A stretch of DNA of 14,705 bases. It comes from Candidatus Hermodarchaeota archaeon. Its GTDB lineage: Archaea > Asgardarchaeota > Lokiarchaeia > Sigyniarchaeales > SOKP01. Location: NCBI GenBank assembly GCA_048885525.1, contig JBHLLP010000063.1, positions 1 to 14,705 of the forward strand, in the 5' to 3' direction. The notes beneath the pieces were generated by a model that saw only the letters and a list, made by a program, of their open reading frames with translations, was not told the origin of the DNA and did no database searches. Below, piece by piece: positions 2,274-13,096 of this stretch (position 1 is its first letter; every line of letters starts with the position of its first letter). A program made the position numbers and the translations under genes.

Positions 2274-3518
2274 CTATAGTTTTAAAGAAAACAATGGATT
2301 TAAACGAGCAATAATGTCTCCTAGATCTAACTGAATTGATTTAAGAACGATATCCCGTCCTCGATATCCAAATTGCAATTCACTTACGTCTCTAACTATT
2401 TTTAATCTGCTTATATTTGTTTTAAGAGAACTGACAAAATATCTTTGATCTTTATATTCTAATATATCTAATACATCTTCTATATCATTAAATTCATATC
2501 CTCCTCCATGAGGAAGAATACAGGCACTTTTTAATAATTGAAGGAGCTCTAGAGTTTCTGCCCTTTCTAATAGATTTTGATTTTTAAGAGTTGTTTCAGA
2601 TAAATTGTTTTTGCCTTTAAATAAATAAGCTGCTATATCTGCTCTAAGAGTTGTAGGAAAAATATCTGATTTAATTAAATCACACTTAATATCTGTACAA
2701 TTACTTCCTAAATACATATTATTATAATCCTTTAAAAATTGGTGTGGTTGATTACATATAATTTCATATCCATAATCAAAAAGGTTATTAGCGATAATCT
2801 CTCTCTTTACATTAGAAAATTCTAAAGCTTTTTTGTTGAATTCAAGATATTCTTTAGCATCAGAATCAATTAATATATAATGTATGCCTAATTTGCTTTT
2901 TTCTTCAATCGCAACATCTTTTAATGTTTTTGACTTATCAATATAGAGGCCAATCCCATATTCGTCACTTCTGAATTCTGGAGCTGAGCCATGAATAAGA
3001 AAAATATAACGTGGAAGTTCAATATCAGACAAATTTTTCATTTCAAAGCAATTAATAAAATGATTAGATATACCATAATCCCAATTAATTAAGACTCTAT
3101 CATGATAAAGTTTTTTTGATTTAATTGCGTCTATCTTTTTAATTAAATTATATGGATCGGGTAATTCTTCTAAACCACCAACTAAAATTCCGCAACAATT
3201 AGGTTTGGTATTGAGAAAGATCAATTTTTCATTACCTTCTCCCCAATTCAATCTTCCTCCATATCCCAATCCAGAATTCCATCTAAATTTATTTCTCGAT
3301 ATTGTTTCATCAGGAGAAGAAATAAATGTTGCCTTAGGTTCAAACCCATATTTTTCTTGGATAAGATGAAATTGAGCTAAACCATATTTCATGTTTGCTT
3401 GGCACAATTTCGATGTTCCATCATTTAAACCAGTTGAAAAAATGAACTGACTTGCTCTATCTAATAAATTTAATCTTGAAAGTTCTGAAATTTTTAGAGA
3501 TAGGATGGAAGAACCCAT
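2274..3518 (-). CDS. Divergent RtcB-like protein (putative GTP/Mn-dependent RNA 3'-phosphate/5'-OH ligase family)
   Basis: RtcB motifs appear in collinear order: PD70, GLGYGG, PNCCG (C109), SNHF (N152/H153), FLIHGS (H176), EYLEFNKKALEFSNVKR helix, PHQ (H259), AYLFKG, LPHGGG (H337), GYR and the C-terminal ARLNPLFSLK (K413). Recognised by eye only; no profile search was run. Confidence 0.72.
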   Translation of the reverse strand: MGSSILSLKISELSRLNLLDRASQFIFSTGLNDGTSKLCQANMKYGLAQFHLIQEKYGFEPKATFISSPDETISRNKFRWNSGLGYGGRLNWGEGNEKLIFLNTKPNCCGILVGGLEELPDPYNLIKKIDAIKSKKLYHDRVLINWDYGISNHFINCFEMKNLSDIELPRYIFLIHGSAPEFRSDEYGIGLYIDKSKTLKDVAIEEKSKLGIHYILIDSDAKEYLEFNKKALEFSNVKREIIANNLFDYGYEIICNQPHQFLKDYNNMYLGSNCTDIKCDLIKSDIFPTTLRADIAAYLFKGKNNLSETTLKNQNLLERAETLELLQLLKSACILPHGGGYEFNDIEDVLDILEYKDQRYFVSSLKTNISRLKIVRDVSELQFGYRGRDIVLKSIQLDLGDIIARLNPLFSLKL

Positions 3519-3653: not shown

Positions 3654-4277
3654 ATGAAAAATTCAAAGAGCTTTATTTTATTTGATTCACAAAAAAATAT
3701 AAAGATAAATGGAGAATTTACAGGTTCTATTATATCTAAGTGTCAAGATAAAATTATCTTTTCAGATAATATTAAAATTTCAGATTCTGAAGGAATTATA
3801 ATAACTGAAGGTTTACTTACCGGGTTTGAAAAAAAAGGGAAAAAATTAACTCCAATATCAAGAAACTCTGATTTTAAATGGAATTTAAAAGATGTTCCAT
3901 TAGAATATTCTGTTTCGATCCCAGATGATACAATGGAACAGTATGACCAAGGACAGTTTTCCAATGAATTTCCATTTACCATTAATCTTCTTCACACAGC
4001 TGCCTTGCTTTTAAATGACCTCGAATTTGGACTGAATCATTTAGATTTTTTTAAAGGAGAAATTCTAAAAAATCCAGTTTCAATGATAAGAAATGGAATT
4101 ATTGTAGCTGATAGATTAGTTATTGATGATAATGGTAACCCTGTCTTTTATGATTGTTTGATTGTTGGAAGGGATAAAAATGATAATCTTAATATAAGTT
4201 ATGAACCAATAGTTAACGTTGATGATAAGGTAATTGAATATATTATAATTTTAGGTATAGAGGAATTAAAAATTTAA
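3654..4277 (+). CDS. Hypothetical protein (207 aa)
   Basis: Uninterrupted ATG-initiated ORF with codon usage like its neighbours, ending 17 bp before the ATPase gene. No family confidently recognised. Confidence 0.8.
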   Translation: MKNSKSFILFDSQKNIKINGEFTGSIISKCQDKIIFSDNIKISDSEGIIITEGLLTGFEKKGKKLTPISRNSDFKWNLKDVPLEYSVSIPDDTMEQYDQGQFSNEFPFTINLLHTAALLLNDLEFGLNHLDFFKGEILKNPVSMIRNGIIVADRLVIDDNGNPVFYDCLIVGRDKNDNLNISYEPIVNVDDKVIEYIIILGIEELKI

Positions 4278-4294
4278 AATAATTCTGATTTAAA

Positions 4295-5515
4295 ATGCTT
4301 CTTTTTGAGAACAAGGAACAAAAATTATTGAATCTCTTAAAATTTATAGGTTCACCATTTAAAAAATTTGTATCTACTGGAGAAATTAAAGAAGACATTG
4401 GATTAGTCAAATCAAGACAAGATTTATTGCATTCTATAATAAATATACTTGAAAAAAAAGAAAACGTAATCTTACCAATAATTGGTGAAGTAGGAACAGG
4501 AAAAACACATTTGTACTGGGCTCTTAAACATGGGTTGTATTATTATAATCTCGTCTATATTTCTTTAGAAAATGTCGTTAAGAAATTTTATTACAATACA
4601 TATTCGGAATTTATAGAAAATATGGGTATTGACGTTTTAAGAAACATTGCAAGAAGATTGTGTAATAAATGGGGTGCTTCAGAAAGGAAATTTGGTTTTT
4701 TCAATTTGGCAGATATTGAGAAAGTTAAAAAGGAAGCATTTGAAACTTTTGCTCCAAATTTTGAAAATCAAGATTCAATATCAGACATCATTAACGCAAT
4801 AGTAGCTCATCAATTAGATCCATATAAAAAAATAGAAGTTGAACGATGGTTCTTAGGAGAAGTAATAGATATAAGAGATCTTTCAAGATTGAAATTAAAA
4901 AATGATTTAAGAGAAAAGAATAACGCATATACAATGCTTAAAGTATTAGTTGAAAATGCAATGGTAAGTAGTGTATTATTTATTGATGATTTTGAGAAAA
5001 TTCTTTCTATGATGAGACCAATACCAATAGAAGAACAGACTGAAGAAGTTTTTGACAGAAGTTGGCTTTATGGGACTAAACAATCACCAGAAAAGCGTAC
5101 TGCTGATAAAATCTTAAAGAAAATCATCAATTTAAATAAAATTAATGGTCTAAGAATTATTATTACCTTAAAATCAACCGAATTTTACAGAGAAATTATA
5201 GATAAACTAAAAGAAAGAGATAGTAAATTGTTAAATGTAGTAAACGACCCTATTATTTTATCTAATTTTATTGAAGAAGATCTATCGACATTTTATAGAA
5301 AGAATTTAGAATTCTTTTTTGGACAAATTAATTACTTTGACTACATACAAGATTTTTCAAATTCATATTATCCACTAAATCAAGATGTACTAAATTATAT
5401 ATATAATAATACGAAAGGTAATCCAAGAGATATAATAAAGTTATTAATAAAGATCTTCAATGATATTATATTAACCTATGAGGATTTAGAAGATATACTT
5501 AAAAAATATCAATAA
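4295..5515 (+). CDS. P-loop AAA+ ATPase (Orc1/Cdc6- or DUF2791/BrxD-like)
   Basis: Walker A GEVGTGKT (aa 64-71), Walker B VLFIDDFE, a large helical insert between them containing RWFLGE, and a lid/sensor-2 region YPLN...TKGNPRDIIK. Confidence 0.85.
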   Translation: MLLFENKEQKLLNLLKFIGSPFKKFVSTGEIKEDIGLVKSRQDLLHSIINILEKKENVILPIIGEVGTGKTHLYWALKHGLYYYNLVYISLENVVKKFYYNTYSEFIENMGIDVLRNIARRLCNKWGASERKFGFFNLADIEKVKKEAFETFAPNFENQDSISDIINAIVAHQLDPYKKIEVERWFLGEVIDIRDLSRLKLKNDLREKNNAYTMLKVLVENAMVSSVLFIDDFEKILSMMRPIPIEEQTEEVFDRSWLYGTKQSPEKRTADKILKKIINLNKINGLRIIITLKSTEFYREIIDKLKERDSKLLNVVNDPIILSNFIEEDLSTFYRKNLEFFFGQINYFDYIQDFSNSYYPLNQDVLNYIYNNTKGNPRDIIKLLIKIFNDIILTYEDLEDILKKYQ

Positions 5516-6278: not shown

Positions 6279-7673
6279 TTATTTATCTGGATTTTCGACA
6301 ACACGTTTTAGAGGTTTTATCATTTCAGTTTTTAATACAGAATAGAAAATCTTTCTAAACTTCTCATTTTGAGTTAAAGGGATAAACTTTTCATTCATTT
6401 TTTTAGCATATTTATCGTCATGGGGGAAATCATAATATCCATGTTCTTCATAATATCTATGATCAGCTTGGAAGACAAACCTCATTCTACCATATACAGC
6501 GTCTCTAAATATTTTATTCCCTCCTACTGACAGGAAGGTTTGTGGTTTTTTATAACCAGATTGGGAATCCATGATCAGCTTTTTAGCTAAAGTATAGATC
6601 AATGAATCAATAATCTTCGAATTTGCATATTCATCAGTAATAATATCTACAAGGTTACTCTCTTCTAATTCAGGCATTAATTCCATGATTTGTCTTAGAT
6701 TAGCAATTTGACCCAATGGTCCAGAAATAAGAAAACCAAATTGTTTTTTTCTTAATGTTGGAATATGTCCATTGAAAAAACTTCTATCAATAACCATTTT
6801 CCACCTTGATGATAAATATCTGTCTACTATGTTTCCAGCAAAAACCAAAATATCAGCAGATTCTAAGTTCACGCTCCAAAATTCATTAAAATCATCCTTA
6901 TCTTTATAAACACAAATATTGTCATATCCACATTGAATACATCCTAAACATCCACCTTTAATATTTAGATCATTGATATTTATTATTTCAATTTCATTAG
7001 AAAAGCAATCTTGAAACCGTTGGATCATTTTACCCAGATTAGTGCTTTTATCAATTGAATCTGTAACAACAAGTACTCTTTTTTCTAAAGTATCTATTTT
7101 TTTTTCTTCTTTTTCGAGTTTTCCTGGAATATAATCAAATGATTGTTTGATTAAAGGTATATTTTTTCGTGATGTGGGAAGATTTTTTTCGATTGCATAA
7201 AACAAATTTTCAGCAAATAAAATTAATTGTTTTCTCTTATCTGGAAACATAAGATCAAACATATCAGCAGAAAAAGATCCGACATATTTCATTTCCAAAT
7301 CATCACAAATAGCATTCATATAATTTATCGCAGTATGATCATAGAAATGAATTGACGTTGCGAGTAGAGCAGTATATTTATCCCTAAAATATTGTTCTTT
7401 TTTTCTTTCCGTAATGAGTTCAATAAATCTTTTGTATTGAGATGGAACAAGTGCCACATATAAAGGGAAACCCCAAATTATACCATCAGAATTCTTCACG
7501 TCATCTATAACTTCTTTAAATTTTTCCTCATTTTTTTCAAGTTTTTTAATTTGCTGGGCAATATTTAAGATTTTGAGTTCATATTGAGGAAATTTCTTCT
7601 GAATATACAAAATATACTGCATTGTAGCACTTTCAATCCCTTTAGGACTTCCATTTAAAACAATTATTTTCAC
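6279..7673 (-). CDS. NAD(P)H-dependent FMN oxidoreductase / iron-sulfur flavoprotein with two flavodoxin-like domains
   Basis: N-terminal MKIIVLNGSPKG and DGIIWGFPLY...VPSQYKRFIE (FMN_red family). The second domain has GCLGCIQCGYDNIC (Cx2Cx2Cx5C, Isf-type) and ADILVFAG...WKMVIDR. GTG start with a purine-rich RBS (AAGGGA) upstream. Confidence 0.88.
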   Translation of the reverse strand: MKIIVLNGSPKGIESATMQYILYIQKKFPQYELKILNIAQQIKKLEKNEEKFKEVIDDVKNSDGIIWGFPLYVALVPSQYKRFIELITERKKEQYFRDKYTALLATSIHFYDHTAINYMNAICDDLEMKYVGSFSADMFDLMFPDKRKQLILFAENLFYAIEKNLPTSRKNIPLIKQSFDYIPGKLEKEEKKIDTLEKRVLVVTDSIDKSTNLGKMIQRFQDCFSNEIEIININDLNIKGGCLGCIQCGYDNICVYKDKDDFNEFWSVNLESADILVFAGNIVDRYLSSRWKMVIDRSFFNGHIPTLRKKQFGFLISGPLGQIANLRQIMELMPELEESNLVDIITDEYANSKIIDSLIYTLAKKLIMDSQSGYKKPQTFLSVGGNKIFRDAVYGRMRFVFQADHRYYEEHGYYDFPHDDKYAKKMNEKFIPLTQNEKFRKIFYSVLKTEMIKPLKRVVENPDK

Positions 7674-7793: not shown

Positions 7794-8639
7794 TTAATAT
7801 TTCTCCTTTAGATATTTGAATAGAACATCTAAATCTTTTAATCTGTCAATAGGTTTAAAAATAATATCATCTGCCCCTGTTTTTCTTAAAATTTCCTCTT
7901 TTTCTTTTTCGCAGAAAGCAGCGGAAATTAAAATTATTGGAATATAATTAAACTGAGGACTCGATTTAAGCATTTGACAGAAGCGATCTCCATTAATTTT
8001 ACTAGTCTTTAAATTAATATCGAGTAATATAACGCTAGGAGTTAAACTCTTAAGAATATATAAAGCTTCATCAGAAGTTTCTATTGATCTTATATTGACA
8101 TTCTCTGCTTTAAAAAAATAATCAACAGTCTTACGTTCTAACTCATTATCTTCAATATATAGAAGATCAATTTTTCTTACAAATCTTACGATATTCGGTT
8201 CTTCAAAATGGCGCTCCACAGAAATCTCCAACTCTTCTAAAGCGCCTAATGCATCCTGAATGCCATCTTGGAGTTTTTCTTTTTCTTCGATATAATTATT
8301 CAACATTAAGAGAGAAAGTTTAAGTGGCGATAACTTCTGCTTTAATATTTCGTGAAACCCATCACCAAATTCATATTCTTTAATTGCTTTTCTTATTAAA
8401 TCATCAAGTTCACTTTCATCATAATTTTGATGATCTCTATGCGATCTCTTTTTGAACATTTCTTTAAAATAATCAATACAATGATCAACACAATTTCTTA
8501 TGATATTCGCTTGATTAGTTAAATTATATTCTTTCATAAACTCTCTTAATTTAGAGTCAAGATAAGAATCAACATAAGTATACCATTTTACATCTTTCTT
8601 CAATTTACCTGATTTTATTTTTTCATAACCTAAGGTCAT
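7794..8639 (-). CDS. Response regulator: C-terminal REC domain with N-terminal ribbon-helix-helix-like region
   Basis: REC motifs are LLYIEDN (E163/D164), ILLDINL (phosphoacceptor D207), NG, IPIILISA (S239) and FKP (K262). The N-terminal WYTYVDSYLDSKLREFMKEYNLTNQANIIRNCVD has RHH-like strand-helix-helix patterning. The gene overlaps the kinase stop by 4 bp (ATGA). Confidence 0.88.
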   Translation of the reverse strand: MTLGYEKIKSGKLKKDVKWYTYVDSYLDSKLREFMKEYNLTNQANIIRNCVDHCIDYFKEMFKKRSHRDHQNYDESELDDLIRKAIKEYEFGDGFHEILKQKLSPLKLSLLMLNNYIEEKEKLQDGIQDALGALEELEISVERHFEEPNIVRFVRKIDLLYIEDNELERKTVDYFFKAENVNIRSIETSDEALYILKSLTPSVILLDINLKTSKINGDRFCQMLKSSPQFNYIPIILISAAFCEKEKEEILRKTGADDIIFKPIDRLKDLDVLFKYLKEKY

Positions 8640-9397
8640 TGAATATCACCCTTTTTTGCTAATGGAATTAGGATTATGAAATTAGTTCCTTTTGAGGAAT
8701 CTCCTTTTATTCGATCTTCAACCCAAATAGTTCCACCATATAATTCTATTAATTTAGCTACTAATGATAACCCTATACCCATACCTTTAGAATGCCCCTT
8801 TTTTGAATAGTTTTCTTGGAAAATAGTCTTTTTTTGAGTATCATCAATACCTATACCATTGTCTTTGAACTCGATCTTTGCAAAATTCCTCTCTCGAAAA
8901 TCAATAACAGAGATAACAATATCAATTTGAACGACTTTGTTGTTATTGTAATTAATAGAATTTGTTATTATATTTTCAAACAATTCACTCAATAGCTCGT
9001 TTGCCATAAGGAAAAGGGTTTCATAATCTGAGATAACCCTAATCTTAATATCCTTTGTAGGAAAACTAATATTCATAAAATTAATAGTTGTTTTTAATGT
9101 AGAAAAAACTTCTACAGCTGCTAAAGGCATTTCAAATTCTTCCAAATCTGAAAGGTTTCTAACGTTTCTGATTAACTGCTTGCCTCGGTTTAACTGTCGT
9201 ACAATCATCTGAAAATACCCCATAATATCTCCTTTTTTTATCTCTTCTAGGAGTAGGGATTCACAGAGCTCTATAGAATTACTGATTATCTGAAATAAAT
9301 TTGAAATATCATGAATAAATAGCCCTTTAAGGCATTTTGTTCTGTAATAAGCATCCTGATATATATTTTCTACATCTTGCATTATTTTTTTTATCAA
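8636..9397 (-). CDS. Histidine kinase (HisKA + HATPase_c) with no sensor domain
   Basis: H-box FIHDISN (H29), N-box LFENIITNSINYN, G1 FKDNGIGI, F-box IFQ, G2 GMGIGLSLV and G3 GTNFIILIP. The start is uncertain (TTG 9397 or ATG 9382). An in-frame stop lies upstream at 9449-9451. Confidence 0.92.
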   Translation of the reverse strand: MIKKIMQDVENIYQDAYYRTKCLKGLFIHDISNLFQIISNSIELCESLLLEEIKKGDIMGYFQMIVRQLNRGKQLIRNVRNLSDLEEFEMPLAAVEVFSTLKTTINFMNISFPTKDIKIRVISDYETLFLMANELLSELFENIITNSINYNNNKVVQIDIVISVIDFRERNFAKIEFKDNGIGIDDTQKKTIFQENYSKKGHSKGMGIGLSLVAKLIELYGGTIWVEDRIKGDSSKGTNFIILIPLAKKGDIQ

Positions 9398-9614: not shown

Positions 9615-11567
9615 TTAAATTGTTAGATTAACAGTTTTTTCAATAAATATATCTTTTATTATGGATTTTAAGGATGGAATATCTTTTAATTGAATTTCCT
9701 TATTCAATTTGTAGAATTTTCCAAAAGTTTGCCAAATTAGCTTATTATTCTGTATTTTATCAATAAAATATTTAATTCTTTGTTGAGCAGAATAAGATTG
9801 CCCTTTATATACATAAAACATTAAAAAAGGCGATATCGGATTCATGAGGAGTGTATGTTCACCAAAAGAAGCACGATCAAGACCCTCAGAAAATTTTTCA
9901 TTAATAAAAGAGTTGATTGCCGTAAAAAATCCTCCAAAAAGGTGGTCCTCAAAAGATTTATCCTCTATAAATGATTGGGAGAAATACGGTGTGCCACCCT
10001 CTGATACAATTAATAGAAGAACAGGCTCTTCATCTGGAAATTCTGGAATCTCAATCATACGCTTTTTTACCATATGTTCCATTTGTTCGTTCAAACGAGT
10101 AAGCTTCCAACGTTCAGATAAAGAGGCATCTGATTTTTTTAGGTTCTCCCACATGTTTAAATGTTTAAGTAATTCATCATGTTCATGCGAAATTTTCATT
10201 GCTAATCGTTTTATTCCATAGGATTCAGCAATTTTTTGAGCTTGGGTTAAATAACGTCGTGCTGCTTTAATATCCAAATTTAATAAAGCTAATTTCGCTT
10301 TTAATATGAATGTTTCACAGAATATTAAATATGAATGTGAGTTTTCAGCTATAGTTAATAATTGAGCAATATAACTGTCAATCTCGTCAAGTACTTCAGG
10401 ATTTTTATTTAGATGATATTCCGAAAGAAGTAAATCACAAAGATCGATATATGCCTCAATAGCAACATTAAATCTATATGGCTTTTTTTCGAGAAGCTGT
10501 TTTAATAATTCTTCAGCTTTAGCTATATCTCGGATTCGAGAACTCATTTTCAACATTTTGGCTTCATAGTATTGGTACATTATTTCGAGACCTCTATCTT
10601 TACTTTTTTTATATAAATCTTCTAAACGTTGAAAATATTTTTGAGCACGTTCAGTATCTCCCTTTTCGAGAGCTACAGATATCAAACCGCTAATACAAAA
10701 TTCTATTCGTATAGGATTTTGCTCCCAAATTATTAAAGCTTCCTCCAAATATTTCAAAGCAAGATCATAATTACCGATGGAAATATTTACTGCCCCTATA
10801 TTACTTTTTAGACTAGCTACCCATAATTCATTTTTGATTTTTTCATAGAGTTGTAGACTCTTAATAAAATGTTCTAAACTAAGCGTATATTCACCTAATT
10901 CTGAATAAAATACTCCTAAATTAGTATGACACGAAGCAATCCAATAATGGTTAAATTTTATTTCCTTTGCAATTGATAATGCTTTGTTGGCGTATTCCAA
11001 ACCAAGATCAAATCTACTTTTAGCTGTACACATTATCCCTGACATTTCAAGATGAGCCCAGACAATTGGAAGAGTGTTATTAATTTCATTTTGTATCCCT
11101 ATAACCCATTTATGACACTTCTCTGCTAATTCTATATTACCTTTATTGAAATTTATATTTCCTCTAGCAACTCTTATATAAGCTTTTCTTTGCAGTACTT
11201 CTTTTTGAGAGATTTGAGAAGTGAGTTTCAATAAATCTTCAGCTTTTTGGATCACTTCGAGTGCTTCATCAAATCTATTAAATAAAATTAAACCAAAACA
11301 AATCAAAGATAATCCATCAAATGATTGGAGAGGTGCATTAGATTTTTGACTCTCTTTAAATATTCTCCTTCCCAATTTAAAGACATCCTTGATTTTTCCT
11401 TGATGAATTAGAATATGACCCTTGAGAAATTGATATGAAACTTTTTGCTGAAGGTTAATTCCTTCGCGTTGTATTAAGTCATCCAATAAATCAATAGCTT
11501 CATCAACTTTAAATGCATCATAGAGGTTTTCAACTTCTGATAATTCATTTAGTTCTAGATGAGACAT
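9615..11567 (-). CDS. Tetratricopeptide-repeat protein with C-terminal longin-like domain
   Basis: Multiple long TPR repeats (e.g. NLGVFYSELGEYTLSLEHFIKSLQLY; NIGAVNISIGNYDLALKYLEEAL). The C-terminal ~135 aa (PVLLLIVSEGGTPYFSQSF...LFGGFFTAINSF...LDRASFG...) show beta-beta-alpha-beta-beta-beta-alpha patterning. Confidence 0.85.
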   Translation of the reverse strand: MSHLELNELSEVENLYDAFKVDEAIDLLDDLIQREGINLQQKVSYQFLKGHILIHQGKIKDVFKLGRRIFKESQKSNAPLQSFDGLSLICFGLILFNRFDEALEVIQKAEDLLKLTSQISQKEVLQRKAYIRVARGNINFNKGNIELAEKCHKWVIGIQNEINNTLPIVWAHLEMSGIMCTAKSRFDLGLEYANKALSIAKEIKFNHYWIASCHTNLGVFYSELGEYTLSLEHFIKSLQLYEKIKNELWVASLKSNIGAVNISIGNYDLALKYLEEALIIWEQNPIRIEFCISGLISVALEKGDTERAQKYFQRLEDLYKKSKDRGLEIMYQYYEAKMLKMSSRIRDIAKAEELLKQLLEKKPYRFNVAIEAYIDLCDLLLSEYHLNKNPEVLDEIDSYIAQLLTIAENSHSYLIFCETFILKAKLALLNLDIKAARRYLTQAQKIAESYGIKRLAMKISHEHDELLKHLNMWENLKKSDASLSERWKLTRLNEQMEHMVKKRMIEIPEFPDEEPVLLLIVSEGGTPYFSQSFIEDKSFEDHLFGGFFTAINSFINEKFSEGLDRASFGEHTLLMNPISPFLMFYVYKGQSYSAQQRIKYFIDKIQNNKLIWQTFGKFYKLNKEIQLKDIPSLKSIIKDIFIEKTVNLTI

Positions 11568-11858: not shown

Positions 11859-12983
11859 TTAATTTTTAATGATATAGTGTTTTTTTCTTATCCATATTGT
11901 TATTAATAATATAGTTGCTAACACAAAAAGCATATAAAACAACTCAAAACCCACAATAGTTTCATTTTTGTTATTCTCTTTAATTTTGTCCTTCTCTTCA
12001 ATCTGAATAATTTCTAAACCATGATCTTCATCTGCTAAAAAAACGAGGCCTCCAATGATCTCAACTGAATGTATTCTTCCCCCATCGTGGAATTCAGTTA
12101 ATTTGATGGGGGTGGTTGGATCACTGATATTAATTAGTTCTAGACCATCTGACCAGTCTGCTAGATAAGCAATTTTTAAAGATTCGTTGTAAACTTCAAT
12201 ATCGACATCAACAACATTCCCATCATTGTCAAATTGTCCTATTTTTACAGGATTATAGGGATCGCTTATGTTAATTATTTCCAGTCCATCATTACTATCC
12301 GCCACAAATGCAATATTATCAATCACATCAACAGCAACAGCTTGCCCACCGTCATAAAACTTTCCAATTTCCTCAATATTCGTGGGACTGCTTATATTAA
12401 GTATATACAACCCATCATCAAATTCTGCAACATAAGCTAATTCTCCTTCAATCTGAAGTGAAAAAACTGCGTCGTCACCAATATATGTGTCAATTCTAGT
12501 AGGAGCAGAAAGATTTGTGAGATCTAATATCTCTATACCTGCATAATAATTGGCGAGGTAACCGATATTTCCTCTTTCAACTAATTGGTGGGCATCTGAG
12601 GCATTATAATGACCTAATTTAATGGGCTGGGTTGGATTACTGATATTAAGAATCCACAAACCATTCCGATTACATGAAAGATAGACAATGTCTCCAATAA
12701 TATTTACTCCACGTGCTTCTTGAACAGTAAATTGTCCAATCTTCACAGGATTATAGGGATCTGTAATGTTCACTATCTTTAGTCCATTGTCAAAATCTGC
12801 TATAAAAGCAACATCATCAACAATTTGGATATTTACAAATTGACCCCCATCATTATAAAATCCCAATTTTGTGAGGAACAATTCTTTTTCGTTTCCTTGA
12901 ACATTTACAGCAGTTGTAGTGTAGAAACAGAAACTCATTACTATGAAAATAATGAATATAGCACTCTTATAAGTATATCCCAC
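11859..12983 (-). CDS. Secreted, membrane-anchored LVIVD-repeat (7-blade beta-propeller) protein with PGF/Loki-CTERM-like tail
   Basis: Seven ~42-aa LVIVD repeats (AFVAD...GLEIINISDPxNP). Hydrophobic signal peptide from GTG at 12983, which has an AGGTGA SD 7 nt upstream, so this start is preferred over the ORF-track TTG at 13046 (374 aa). C-terminal IVGF + TM helix + RKK, and many N-x-S/T sequons. Confidence 0.88.
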   Translation of the reverse strand: MGYTYKSAIFIIFIVMSFCFYTTTAVNVQGNEKELFLTKLGFYNDGGQFVNIQIVDDVAFIADFDNGLKIVNITDPYNPVKIGQFTVQEARGVNIIGDIVYLSCNRNGLWILNISNPTQPIKLGHYNASDAHQLVERGNIGYLANYYAGIEILDLTNLSAPTRIDTYIGDDAVFSLQIEGELAYVAEFDDGLYILNISSPTNIEEIGKFYDGGQAVAVDVIDNIAFVADSNDGLEIINISDPYNPVKIGQFDNDGNVVDVDIEVYNESLKIAYLADWSDGLELINISDPTTPIKLTEFHDGGRIHSVEIIGGLVFLADEDHGLEIIQIEEKDKIKENNKNETIVGFELFYMLFVLATILLITIWIRKKHYIIKN

Positions 12984-12990
12984 GTCGATT

Positions 12991-12996
12991 TCACCT
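12991..12996 (-). promoter_or_regulatory. Shine-Dalgarno sequence AGGTGA for the LVIVD gene
   Basis: Minus strand reads AGGTGA-aatcgac-GTG GGA TAT, in frame with the ORF. Confidence 0.7.
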
Positions 12997-13096
12997 AATT
13001 TCTCTATATTAGATAAATTTGAATTTTGGTTATACAATTGTTGCAATACATTTAAACATAAATATAATGTTATAAATTAATTCAGGAAAAGCAAAC

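Follow-up and report, generated by a model that had tools for sequence, protein, structure and literature searches.

The 14,705-nucleotide contig JBHLLP010000063.1 of a Candidatus Hermodarchaeota archaeon (hereafter the window; G+C ~28%) carries on its minus strand a gene for a 414-aa protein, P0001, which an initial annotation had read from the sequence as a divergent relative of RtcB, the tRNA-splicing ligase. The open reading frame (ORF) starts with ATG and ends with a TAG stop at 2274–2276 (other coordinates are listed in Table 1). The methionyl-tRNA synthetase gene metG is convergent with it, with its stop at 2272 and 1 nt between the two stops, while 135 bp separate P0001 from a divergent pair of genes, both of unknown family. 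P0001 is single copy in the 99%-complete host genome. A comparison with five congeners gave a ratio of nonsynonymous to synonymous substitution rates (dN/dS) of ~0.10 at dS of 0.8–0.96, and 822 homologs, equal in length, were found at E ≤ 0.001. The best 120 of the 822 are 75–100% identical over the full length, and the labels on the homologs indicate a placement in Lokiarchaeia/Promethearchaeota. The low dN/dS and the 822 homologs show that P0001 is a real gene under purifying selection.

P0001 has no match in Pfam, even at E 10. In NCBIfam it reaches only two short bacterial RtcB models of the TIGR03073/PRK09588 kind (RtcB2 type), with 11 bits over residues 216–248 (E 0.13–0.15) against cut-offs of 272–407, and a search of the PDB sequences with the P0001 sequence alone returned nothing relevant. 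When 1.84 billion representatives were searched exhaustively with phmmer, the family came to 227 clusters at 50% identity, and 52 full-length representatives with 25–71% identity to P0001 form the alignment used here (A1). PF01139, the RtcB family, is the sole Pfam family matched by more than one of these 52 members; it matches five, with a best E of 0.007 and all under the 27-bit cut-off. The A1 profile retrieves RtcB as its best four matches in the PDB (E 0.006–0.06), aligned at NHF, the next His, HGxG and the C-terminal motif. The family profile also aligns with the canonical RtcB of the host genome (hhalign, E 2.7e-4), although the sequence identity between P0001 and canonical RtcB is ~10%. 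All named homologs are labeled 'hypothetical protein', a label that the initial annotation had thought automated pipelines might give the gene. A literature search found no description of the family, and no Pfam or NCBIfam model covers it. Because there is no Pfam match, PF01139 stays below threshold in 5 of 52 members and the NCBIfam matches lie at E ~0.1, the P0001 family is a distinct, large and uncurated sister family of RtcB, which bears out the separate subfamily proposed at the outset.

Predicted fold and active site

The AlphaFold2 model of P0001, built on A1, has a predicted local distance difference test score (pLDDT) of 95.5 and a predicted template modeling score (pTM) of 0.93. Canonical RtcB is represented by PF01139 and by the structures of Pyrococcus horikoshii PH1602 (1uc2, 4dwq and 4dwr), Thermus thermophilus TTHA1785 (2epg) and human RTCB (7p3b and 8odp). 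In a Foldseek search of the PDB, the top 16 matches to the model are all RtcB/RTCB (E 9e-8 to 2e-5), and the next match has E > 0.04. VIA, an aligner independent of Foldseek, superimposes the model on T. thermophilus RtcB (2epg_B) with Z 21.4 and a root-mean-square deviation of 3.3 Å over 301 aa; the next chain has Z 5.0. RtcB is the sole match by both methods, as expected from the motifs first noted, and the predicted fold of P0001 is that of RtcB and no other. From the 301-residue superposition and the profile alignment, C109, H153, H176, H259 and H337 are predicted to lie in one site. A predicted complex of P0001 (A1) with the host Archease, GTP and two Mn ions scored 0.00 and was used neither for nor against binding.

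The residues were mapped with a reference profile of 32 canonical RtcBs, taken from the phylum plus one bacterium. The hhalign alignment (local mode, low maximum accuracy threshold; alternative 2) is full-length and colinear and covers 345 columns. Landmarks of P. horikoshii RtcB were transferred by motif via the RtcB of the host genome onto the family, where counts refer to the 52 members of A1. Nine columns are invariant (D70, G87, H153, H176, G211, H259, G271, H337 and G340), and the columns with at least 90% conservation include C109, G110, N152, F154, R239, P336, G338 and R386. Since five of the nine invariant columns are catalytic positions and C109 and N152 reach at least 90% at 25–71% identity, the pairing of motifs with RtcB is not due to chance. 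All the pairings with P. horikoshii RtcB that the initial annotation had listed are reproduced by the profile–profile alignment and the residue map, among them GLGYGG with GFPIGG, the Y..A..F...R helix that ends at R239, and Y385-R386 with Y451-K.

In RtcB, the metal M1 (ligands C98, H234 and H329) sits on the α-phosphate and M2 (D95, C98 and H203) on the β- and γ-phosphates of GTP; hydrogen bonds tie N202 and N330 to the phosphates, the guanine is recognized by K480 and E206, and H404 attacks the α-phosphorus (PMC9745838). The Cys-His-His triad of M1 is present in the P0001 family (C109 in 48 members, H176 and H259 in all 52), P0001 keeps C109 and H153 of the three M2 ligands, and H337, the counterpart of H404, is present in every member, in an HGxG loop with conserved G338 and G340, a count that refers to residue presence only. 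The 'apparently intact catalytic core' of the initial annotation holds with the qualifier given there: the M1 site and the His nucleophile are intact, and M2 is without its Asp ligand. P0154 and P0157, two related representatives, have Ser or Gly in place of C109 and retain the histidines; this sub-branch may be inactivated or serve another purpose.

The position of the M2 ligand D95 is taken by K105/P106 in P0001, and position 105 across A1 is mostly Lys (25), Arg (12) or His (3), followed by Pro and never acidic. The HRKGA motif is deleted and falls in an alignment gap, a family-specific LRxDLPxY motif stands in place of the PGSMG guanine loop, R408 of HGAGR becomes Tyr in 43 of 52, and the segment from the Cys to NHF measures 43 aa in P0001 versus 104 aa in the RtcB of the host genome. 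These losses had all been noticed from the sequence and are real by the residue map, which adds others: the counterpart of N330 is Gln in 38 of 52, and the three contacts to the 5´-OH strand are gone, with R190 in a deletion, Q194 replaced by Ile, Leu or Val, and R238 (four residues past H176) replaced by P180 in P0001 (P14/S12/R6 of 52). In RtcB, N202 anchors the 5´-OH, R238, R190 and Q194 bind the 5´-OH strand at its first phosphodiesters, and an Ala substitution of the E. coli R238 counterpart slows sealing 200-fold (PMC8051266). As for the guanine contacts (E206, K480 and the loop 378–381), the E206 position is N15/E12/D11 of 52, K413 is Lys or Arg in 41 of 52, and the loop is replaced. 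The R412 counterpart is variable, and a literature search found no documented role for R408. The charge also differs: the family has a median isoelectric point (pI) of 6.3 and a net charge of −4 (P0001, pI 6.4), whereas canonical RtcBs of the same phylum have a pI of 8.6 and a net charge of +4 (8.8 for the host RtcB). As judged by alignment, the family keeps the residues that would bind a nucleotide and a metal and form the histidine–nucleoside monophosphate (His-NMP), along with some elements of the nucleoside pocket (Y385, K413 and the HGGG loop), and has lost one M2 ligand and all known contacts to an acceptor polynucleotide.

Distribution, genomic partners and regulation

The host genome encodes one canonical RtcB (571 bits to PF01139) with an adjoining Archease gene on contig C56; this pair was the one to look for elsewhere in the genome according to the initial annotation, and both genes are there, side by side. 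Because the canonical RtcB-Archease pair co-exists with it, P0001 is not the tRNA-splicing ligase. Among 201 sampled genomes of the phylum (Asgard), PF01139 occurs in 192 and the P0001 family in 84. The family is patchy: it occurs in 38 of 40 genomes of the window's taxonomic family and in 10 of 10 in f22, some genomes have two or three paralogs, and it was found in no sampled genome of many other taxonomic families. This patchy distribution beside a near-universal RtcB indicates that the family is accessory and no replacement for RtcB.

Taxon names outside Asgard derive from source labels and Atlas clusters. The source labels comprise Promethearchaeota, Thor-, Hod-, Odin-, Heimdall-, Hermod- and Sifarchaeia, Bathyarchaeota, Altiarchaeales, Anaerolineae and Armatimonadota, and one member contig is clearly bacterial, as it contains a nusA-infB-rbfA-truB-ribF array. 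The Atlas neighbors of the P0001 model include a 366-member cluster, mostly Altarchaeota, with a template modeling (TM) score of 0.89; a Chloroflexota fragment cluster; an 843-aa Bacillota cluster; and a 366-aa Myxococcota cluster with a TM score of 0.70, in which 13% of the members match PF01139.

Gene neighborhoods were assembled for 40 Asgard loci and for the contigs of other members; the neighbors were called and clustered, and the recurrent ones were annotated. The window's clade, which is one taxonomic family, shows just the metG synteny and a divergent pair, c8 and c6. The metG linkage was rejected as functional evidence because the synteny is confined to that one taxonomic family. The nearest lineages outside the clade have an HD phosphohydrolase gene adjoining the family member. 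In a Thor genome (L033) the two genes share 4 nt, and a complete Thorarchaeota genome (L096) has the order GHMP sugar kinase, GH38 mannosidase, unknown, HD, member. At another locus (L093) pyruvate kinase and HD precede the member, and at L036 the HD gene is divergent with a GDPD gene nearby. In two further near lineages the neighbor is a Metallophos gene. The HD pairing is not claimed for the host genome, whose only HD candidate is a 30%-identical protein on another contig.

Further contexts come from other branches of the family. A 528-aa Metallophos protein, the member and a GDPD follow one another with spacers of 3–94 nt in at least eight genomes, and the Metallophos partner has an NCBIfam SpdA-like match (E 6e-12). 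In Lokiarchaeia (L040, and also L043, L055 and L056), an operon runs from a GT4-like gene, called by Atlas features alone, through an RtcB-like paralog and an IPCT-like gene to a DIPPS/AIPS-like gene, which encodes a 485-aa CDP-alcohol phosphotransferase, kin of DIPP and archaetidylinositol-phosphate synthases. The gene content of this operon suggests a pathway to an inositol-phosphate solute or lipid head group. Other operons have the orders S9 peptidase–GGT–member–unknown, TIR–member–HAD, PstS-like–ABC ATPase–member, ABC-3 permease–member–nucleoside-phosphorylase-like and GT2–member–TTL-like ATP-grasp (a weak match).

Fusions point to similar partners. An APH small-molecule kinase domain is fused to the RtcB-like domain in two proteins, P0143 and P0292, which share 71% identity and stem from separate samples. 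The genes of both belong to a conserved cluster, where the fusion is accompanied by two radical-SAM enzymes, a 363-aa protein of unknown family, a class I/II aminotransferase and an SDR, followed downstream by HAD hydrolases at one locus (L090) and a PRK-family kinase at the other (L091). An Atlas cluster of 936-aa proteins, 80% of them with Metallophos, aligns with the P0001 model over 365 aa and represents a second fusion. A search for longer homologs with P0001 found no fused forms; the fusions came from the representative list and Atlas. PADLOC returned no match for P0001 or three other family members and only generic Metallophos and TIR neighbors, and the reading as a defense system was rejected for want of a match.

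One bacterial member, on the Anaerolineae-like contig L014, has a regulatory unit of its own with a promoter, a full-length cyclic di-AMP (c-di-AMP) riboswitch, a terminator and a Shine-Dalgarno sequence; the near-identical contig L015 has the same unit. This is also the contig on which the member is convergent with RtcB-Archease, and since the member has its own riboswitch-controlled promoter, that neighbor is probably incidental. With this family member the c-di-AMP regulon gains a gene class new to it. Published work links c-di-AMP to the maintenance of the cell wall and to potassium homeostasis, and a cell-wall peptidase is under the control of its riboswitch (PMC9960051). A link to osmotic homeostasis is also described (PMC5919688), and the kdpFABC K+ transporter operon is another target of the riboswitch (PMC6488665).

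Around P0001 itself, c8 is a 207-aa protein of unknown family and c6 a 406-aa P-loop ATPase (Walker A at 64–71, Walker B at ~229–231) with faint DnaA/IstB-like matches. The pair is conserved in 7–8 of 10 genomes of the window's taxonomic family, and a 548-aa c6 homolog is divergent from the HD-member operon in another taxonomic family (L033). The model of c8 is poor (pLDDT 60), and its N-terminal β domain is weakly Sm/LSm-like (Z ≤ 5.4, below a trustworthy level). The AAA-like gene c6 is divergent from the family member in two taxonomic families, but neither c6 nor c8 is identifiable, and a three-gene module of P0001, c6 and c8 was left as a lead. The four genes further along the window have no link to the P0001 finding.

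Table 1. Features of the P0001 locus, of the regulatory unit of a bacterial family member and of selected neighborhoods. Residue counts refer to the 52 members of A1.
Feature	Location	Strand	Remarks
P0001, RtcB-fold protein gene (414 aa)	window 2274..3518	minus	ORF and translation, stop codon included
D70 codon (RtcB D65)	window 3309..3311	minus	D in 52/52
K105-P106-N107-C108-C109	window 3192..3206	minus	C109 = metal-bridging C98; C in 48/52
N152-H153	window 3060..3065	minus	= N202 (phosphate/5´-OH contact) and H203 (M2 ligand); N 51/52, H 52/52; NHF aligned by hmmsearch and hhalign
H176	window 2991..2993	minus	= M1 ligand H234; H in 52/52
H259-Q260	window 2739..2744	minus	= M1 ligand H329 and N330; H 52/52; position 260 Q38/H7
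H337-G-G-G-Y341	window 2496..2510	minus	H337 = nucleotidylated H404; H 52/52; G338 and G340 conserved; Y341 in 43/52
Y385 to K413, C-terminal nucleotide-pocket elements	window 2280..2366	minus	Y385 = Y451, Y44/F6; K413 = K480 (guanine O6 contact), K33/R8
Regulatory unit of family member, whole	L014:7718-8003		Anaerolineae-like bacterial contig
Promoter	L014:7718-7746		11/12 consensus positions
c-di-AMP riboswitch RF00379	L014:7764-7906		full length; 83 bits, E 2e-17
Terminator hairpin and T-tract	L014:7942-7976
Shine-Dalgarno sequence, then ATG	L014, ATG at 8001
Same unit on near-identical contig	L015:6584-6726		promoter, riboswitch, terminator, Shine-Dalgarno sequence
GT4-like to DIPPS/AIPS-like operon	L040:5656-10852		Lokiarchaeia
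APH-fusion cluster	L090:3518-11751
APH-fusion cluster	L091:96-8391
PolX-PHP to RtcA array	L092:8967-14386		bacterial; downstream of a family member
c8 (207 aa)	window 3654-4277	plus	divergent from P0001
c6 (406 aa)	window 4295-5515	plus	P-loop ATPase
FMN-reductase-like protein	window 6279-7673	minus	long C-terminal extension
Receiver-domain protein	window 7794-9397	minus	receiver domain, then short HATPase_c kinase core
TPR protein (650 aa)	window 9615-11567	minus
LVIVD-repeat β-propeller protein	window 11859-13046	minus

Proposed activity and alternatives

With moderate confidence, P0001 is best read as a catalytically competent, nucleotide- and metal-dependent phosphate-activating enzyme with a non-tRNA and probably non-polynucleotide substrate. 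The protein would bind a nucleoside triphosphate (NTP) and a transition metal and form a covalent His337-NMP, as RtcB does. The NMP would then pass to a phosphomonoester to give a nucleoside diphosphate (NDP)-activated phosphate, which would be resolved by a hydroxyl of a second molecule to form a phosphodiester or by a hydroxyl of the same molecule to form a cyclic phosphate; alternatively, the product would be released as an NDP-ester. Because the family no longer has the residues that hold a 5´-OH polynucleotide, and most of its partners are phospho-enzymes for small molecules, the substrate is maybe not a nucleic acid. Judging from these partners, a polynucleotide end is less likely than a phosphorylated small molecule, for example the phosphate of a sugar, polyol or head group, on which a phosphoesterase of the HD or Metallophos kind would also act; different clades may well use different substrates. 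The changed substrate or activity suggested by the initial annotation fits both the lost strand contacts and the small-molecule partners, while the 'ligase' in its title is putative.

A more specific form of this proposal is tentative. The family would be the first RtcB-fold class that acts on small molecules: a sugar, polyol or head-group phosphate supplied by a kinase (APH or GHMP) would be charged with NMP via His337 and then either released as an NDP-ester or joined to a hydroxyl in a phosphodiester solute, a lipid head group or a glycan linkage. HD, Metallophos and GDPD enzymes would trim or recycle the products, and expression in bacteria would follow c-di-AMP, the signal for osmotic state and cell envelope. 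It is conceivable, with about the same reserve, that a single active site does the work of a nucleotidyltransferase and CDP-alcohol phosphotransferase pair.

Several observations weigh against the reading as a phosphate-activating enzyme with a small-molecule substrate. P0001 is monocistronic in the host genome, and because the gene has no informative operon partner, the functional argument for it rests on sister lineages; the contexts vary by clade, which makes one substrate for the whole family unlikely and the transfer of function from other clades to P0001 weak. The tree of 71 members is a quick maximum-likelihood tree with several open forks. For every member, nucleotidylation, metal use and substrate are predictions. 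The M2 Asp is lost, and as the M2 site of RtcB binds the β- and γ-phosphates of GTP (PMC9745838), its loss might abolish guanylylation of the RtcB type. Some contexts are also of a nucleic-acid type, although they are fewer than the small-molecule ones. In a bacterial contig (L092) the member is followed on the same strand, within 5 kb, by PolX-PHP, NTPase_1, DUF429, a Clp1-type kinase and RtcA, an array that looks like a nucleic-acid end-repair cluster. An altiarchaeal member precedes AP_endonuc_2 beside Trm61 (Trm61/GCD14, the tRNA m1A methyltransferase), and the bacterial member with the riboswitch adjoins the convergent RtcB-Archease.

These contexts are among the grounds for a different explanation, in which the family would consist of specialized nucleic-acid end enzymes, that is, RNA or DNA 3´-phosphate ligases, cyclases or capping enzymes with a rebuilt acceptor site that act in repair with HD or Metallophos enzymes, apart from tRNA splicing. 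HD and Metallophos enzymes include 2´,3´-cyclic phosphodiesterases, and the SpdA-like match of the Metallophos partner is in keeping with such a role, as is the weak Sm/LSm likeness of c8. All characterized RtcB-fold enzymes act on polynucleotide ends (PMC10630183), and apart from the PolX-PHP, Clp1-type kinase and RtcA genes near one member and RtcB-Archease near another, metG in the window and Trm61/GCD14 adjoin further members. We nevertheless regard this explanation as rather unlikely. It has to account for the loss of R190, Q194, R238, HRKGA and R408 together, and for a near-neutral or acidic family where RtcB is basic. The APH fusion brings in a small-molecule kinase within a biosynthetic cluster and no polynucleotide kinase, and GDPD, the IPCT/DIPPS-like genes, the glycosyltransferases, the sugar kinase and PstS are no RNA-repair genes. 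As for the neighbors, the RtcB-Archease pair is convergent with a member that has its own riboswitch promoter, and the metG synteny is limited to one taxonomic family.

It is still less probable, and indeed quite improbable, that the family members are NTP-independent metal phosphoesterases, for example cyclic phosphodiesterases for phosphate scavenging in which H337 serves as a general base or phospho-histidine nucleophile. Such an activity would agree with the loss of the M2 Asp, which helps bind the β- and γ-phosphates of GTP, with the replaced guanine loop and with partners that resemble a Pho regulon (GDPD, Metallophos and PstS/ABC). The conservation of Y385 (Tyr or Phe in 50 of 52), K413 and the HGGG loop is, however, hard to explain without a bound nucleotide, and an enzyme that only hydrolyzes would be superfluous where HD, Metallophos and GDPD are already at hand. 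RtcB does have an intrinsic cyclic phosphodiesterase step, but this step is GTP-dependent (PMC3458531).

Pseudo-enzymes typically lose catalytic residues, so a non-catalytic binding or regulatory subunit with the RtcB fold, which the absent Cys in P0154 and P0157 and the incomplete M2 site might suggest, is hardly credible for a family with invariant D70, H153, H176, H259 and H337, C109 and N152 at 90% or more across 25–71% identity, and dN/dS of ~0.10.

Relation to known enzymes and significance

Canonical RtcB and the P0001 family share the fold, the order of motifs and the counterparts of D65, C98, N202, H203, H234, H329, H404, Y451 and K480. They differ in that the partner of RtcB is Archease, whereas the partners of the family are small-molecule phospho-enzymes, and in that RtcB is near-universal in the sampled genomes and basic, whereas the family is accessory and near-neutral. 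Bacterial RtcB paralogs, namely RtcB2 of the RtcB2-PrfH ribosome-repair module and those of Myxococcus, where RtcB3 has capping activity, show that evolution has turned the scaffold of RtcB to other substrates. These paralogs are recognized by RtcB models and act on RNA (PMC13166195, PMC9223846), in contrast to the P0001 family, which is not recognized and has not kept the strand-binding residues. The family, its active-site periphery and a probable substrate class are what would be new here; the fold and the probable chemistry were already known.

The nearest parallels in chemistry have unrelated folds and are functional analogues only. RtcA, the RNA 3´-phosphate cyclase (PF01137), uses His-NMP chemistry to activate a terminal phosphate that is resolved by a neighboring hydroxyl; no homology is claimed, and an RtcA-like cyclization is one possible outcome for an enzyme of RtcB type without a second-strand site. 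Other analogues are the IPCT/DIPPS and Kennedy-type pairs and the GalT-type His-NMP transferases. Our hypothesis is that the activation of an alcohol phosphate as an NDP-ester and its transfer to a hydroxyl, carried out by nucleotidyltransferase/CDP-alcohol phosphotransferase pairs, may correspond to the net chemistry of steps 2 and 3 of RtcB, and IPCT/DIPPS-like genes do sit downstream of a P0001-family paralog in one operon. To our knowledge, no RtcB-fold member acts on small molecules.

RtcB is the only solved family with this fold in the structure searches of the PDB and is known just as a polynucleotide ligase. The P0001 family represents a second large branch of the fold, present in Asgard plus several other archaeal and bacterial phyla. 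Its retention of the residues for the chemistry and its discarding of those that hold RNA make a case for RtcB-type phosphate activation recruited to another class of substrate. With a metabolite or head group as substrate, the family would be a new enzyme type in phosphodiester or NDP-ester biosynthesis, and hundreds of Asgard genes would be annotated; with a nucleic-acid end, it would provide a new repair activity beside RtcB. Either way, the fusions and operons name the partner enzymes of the P0001 family.

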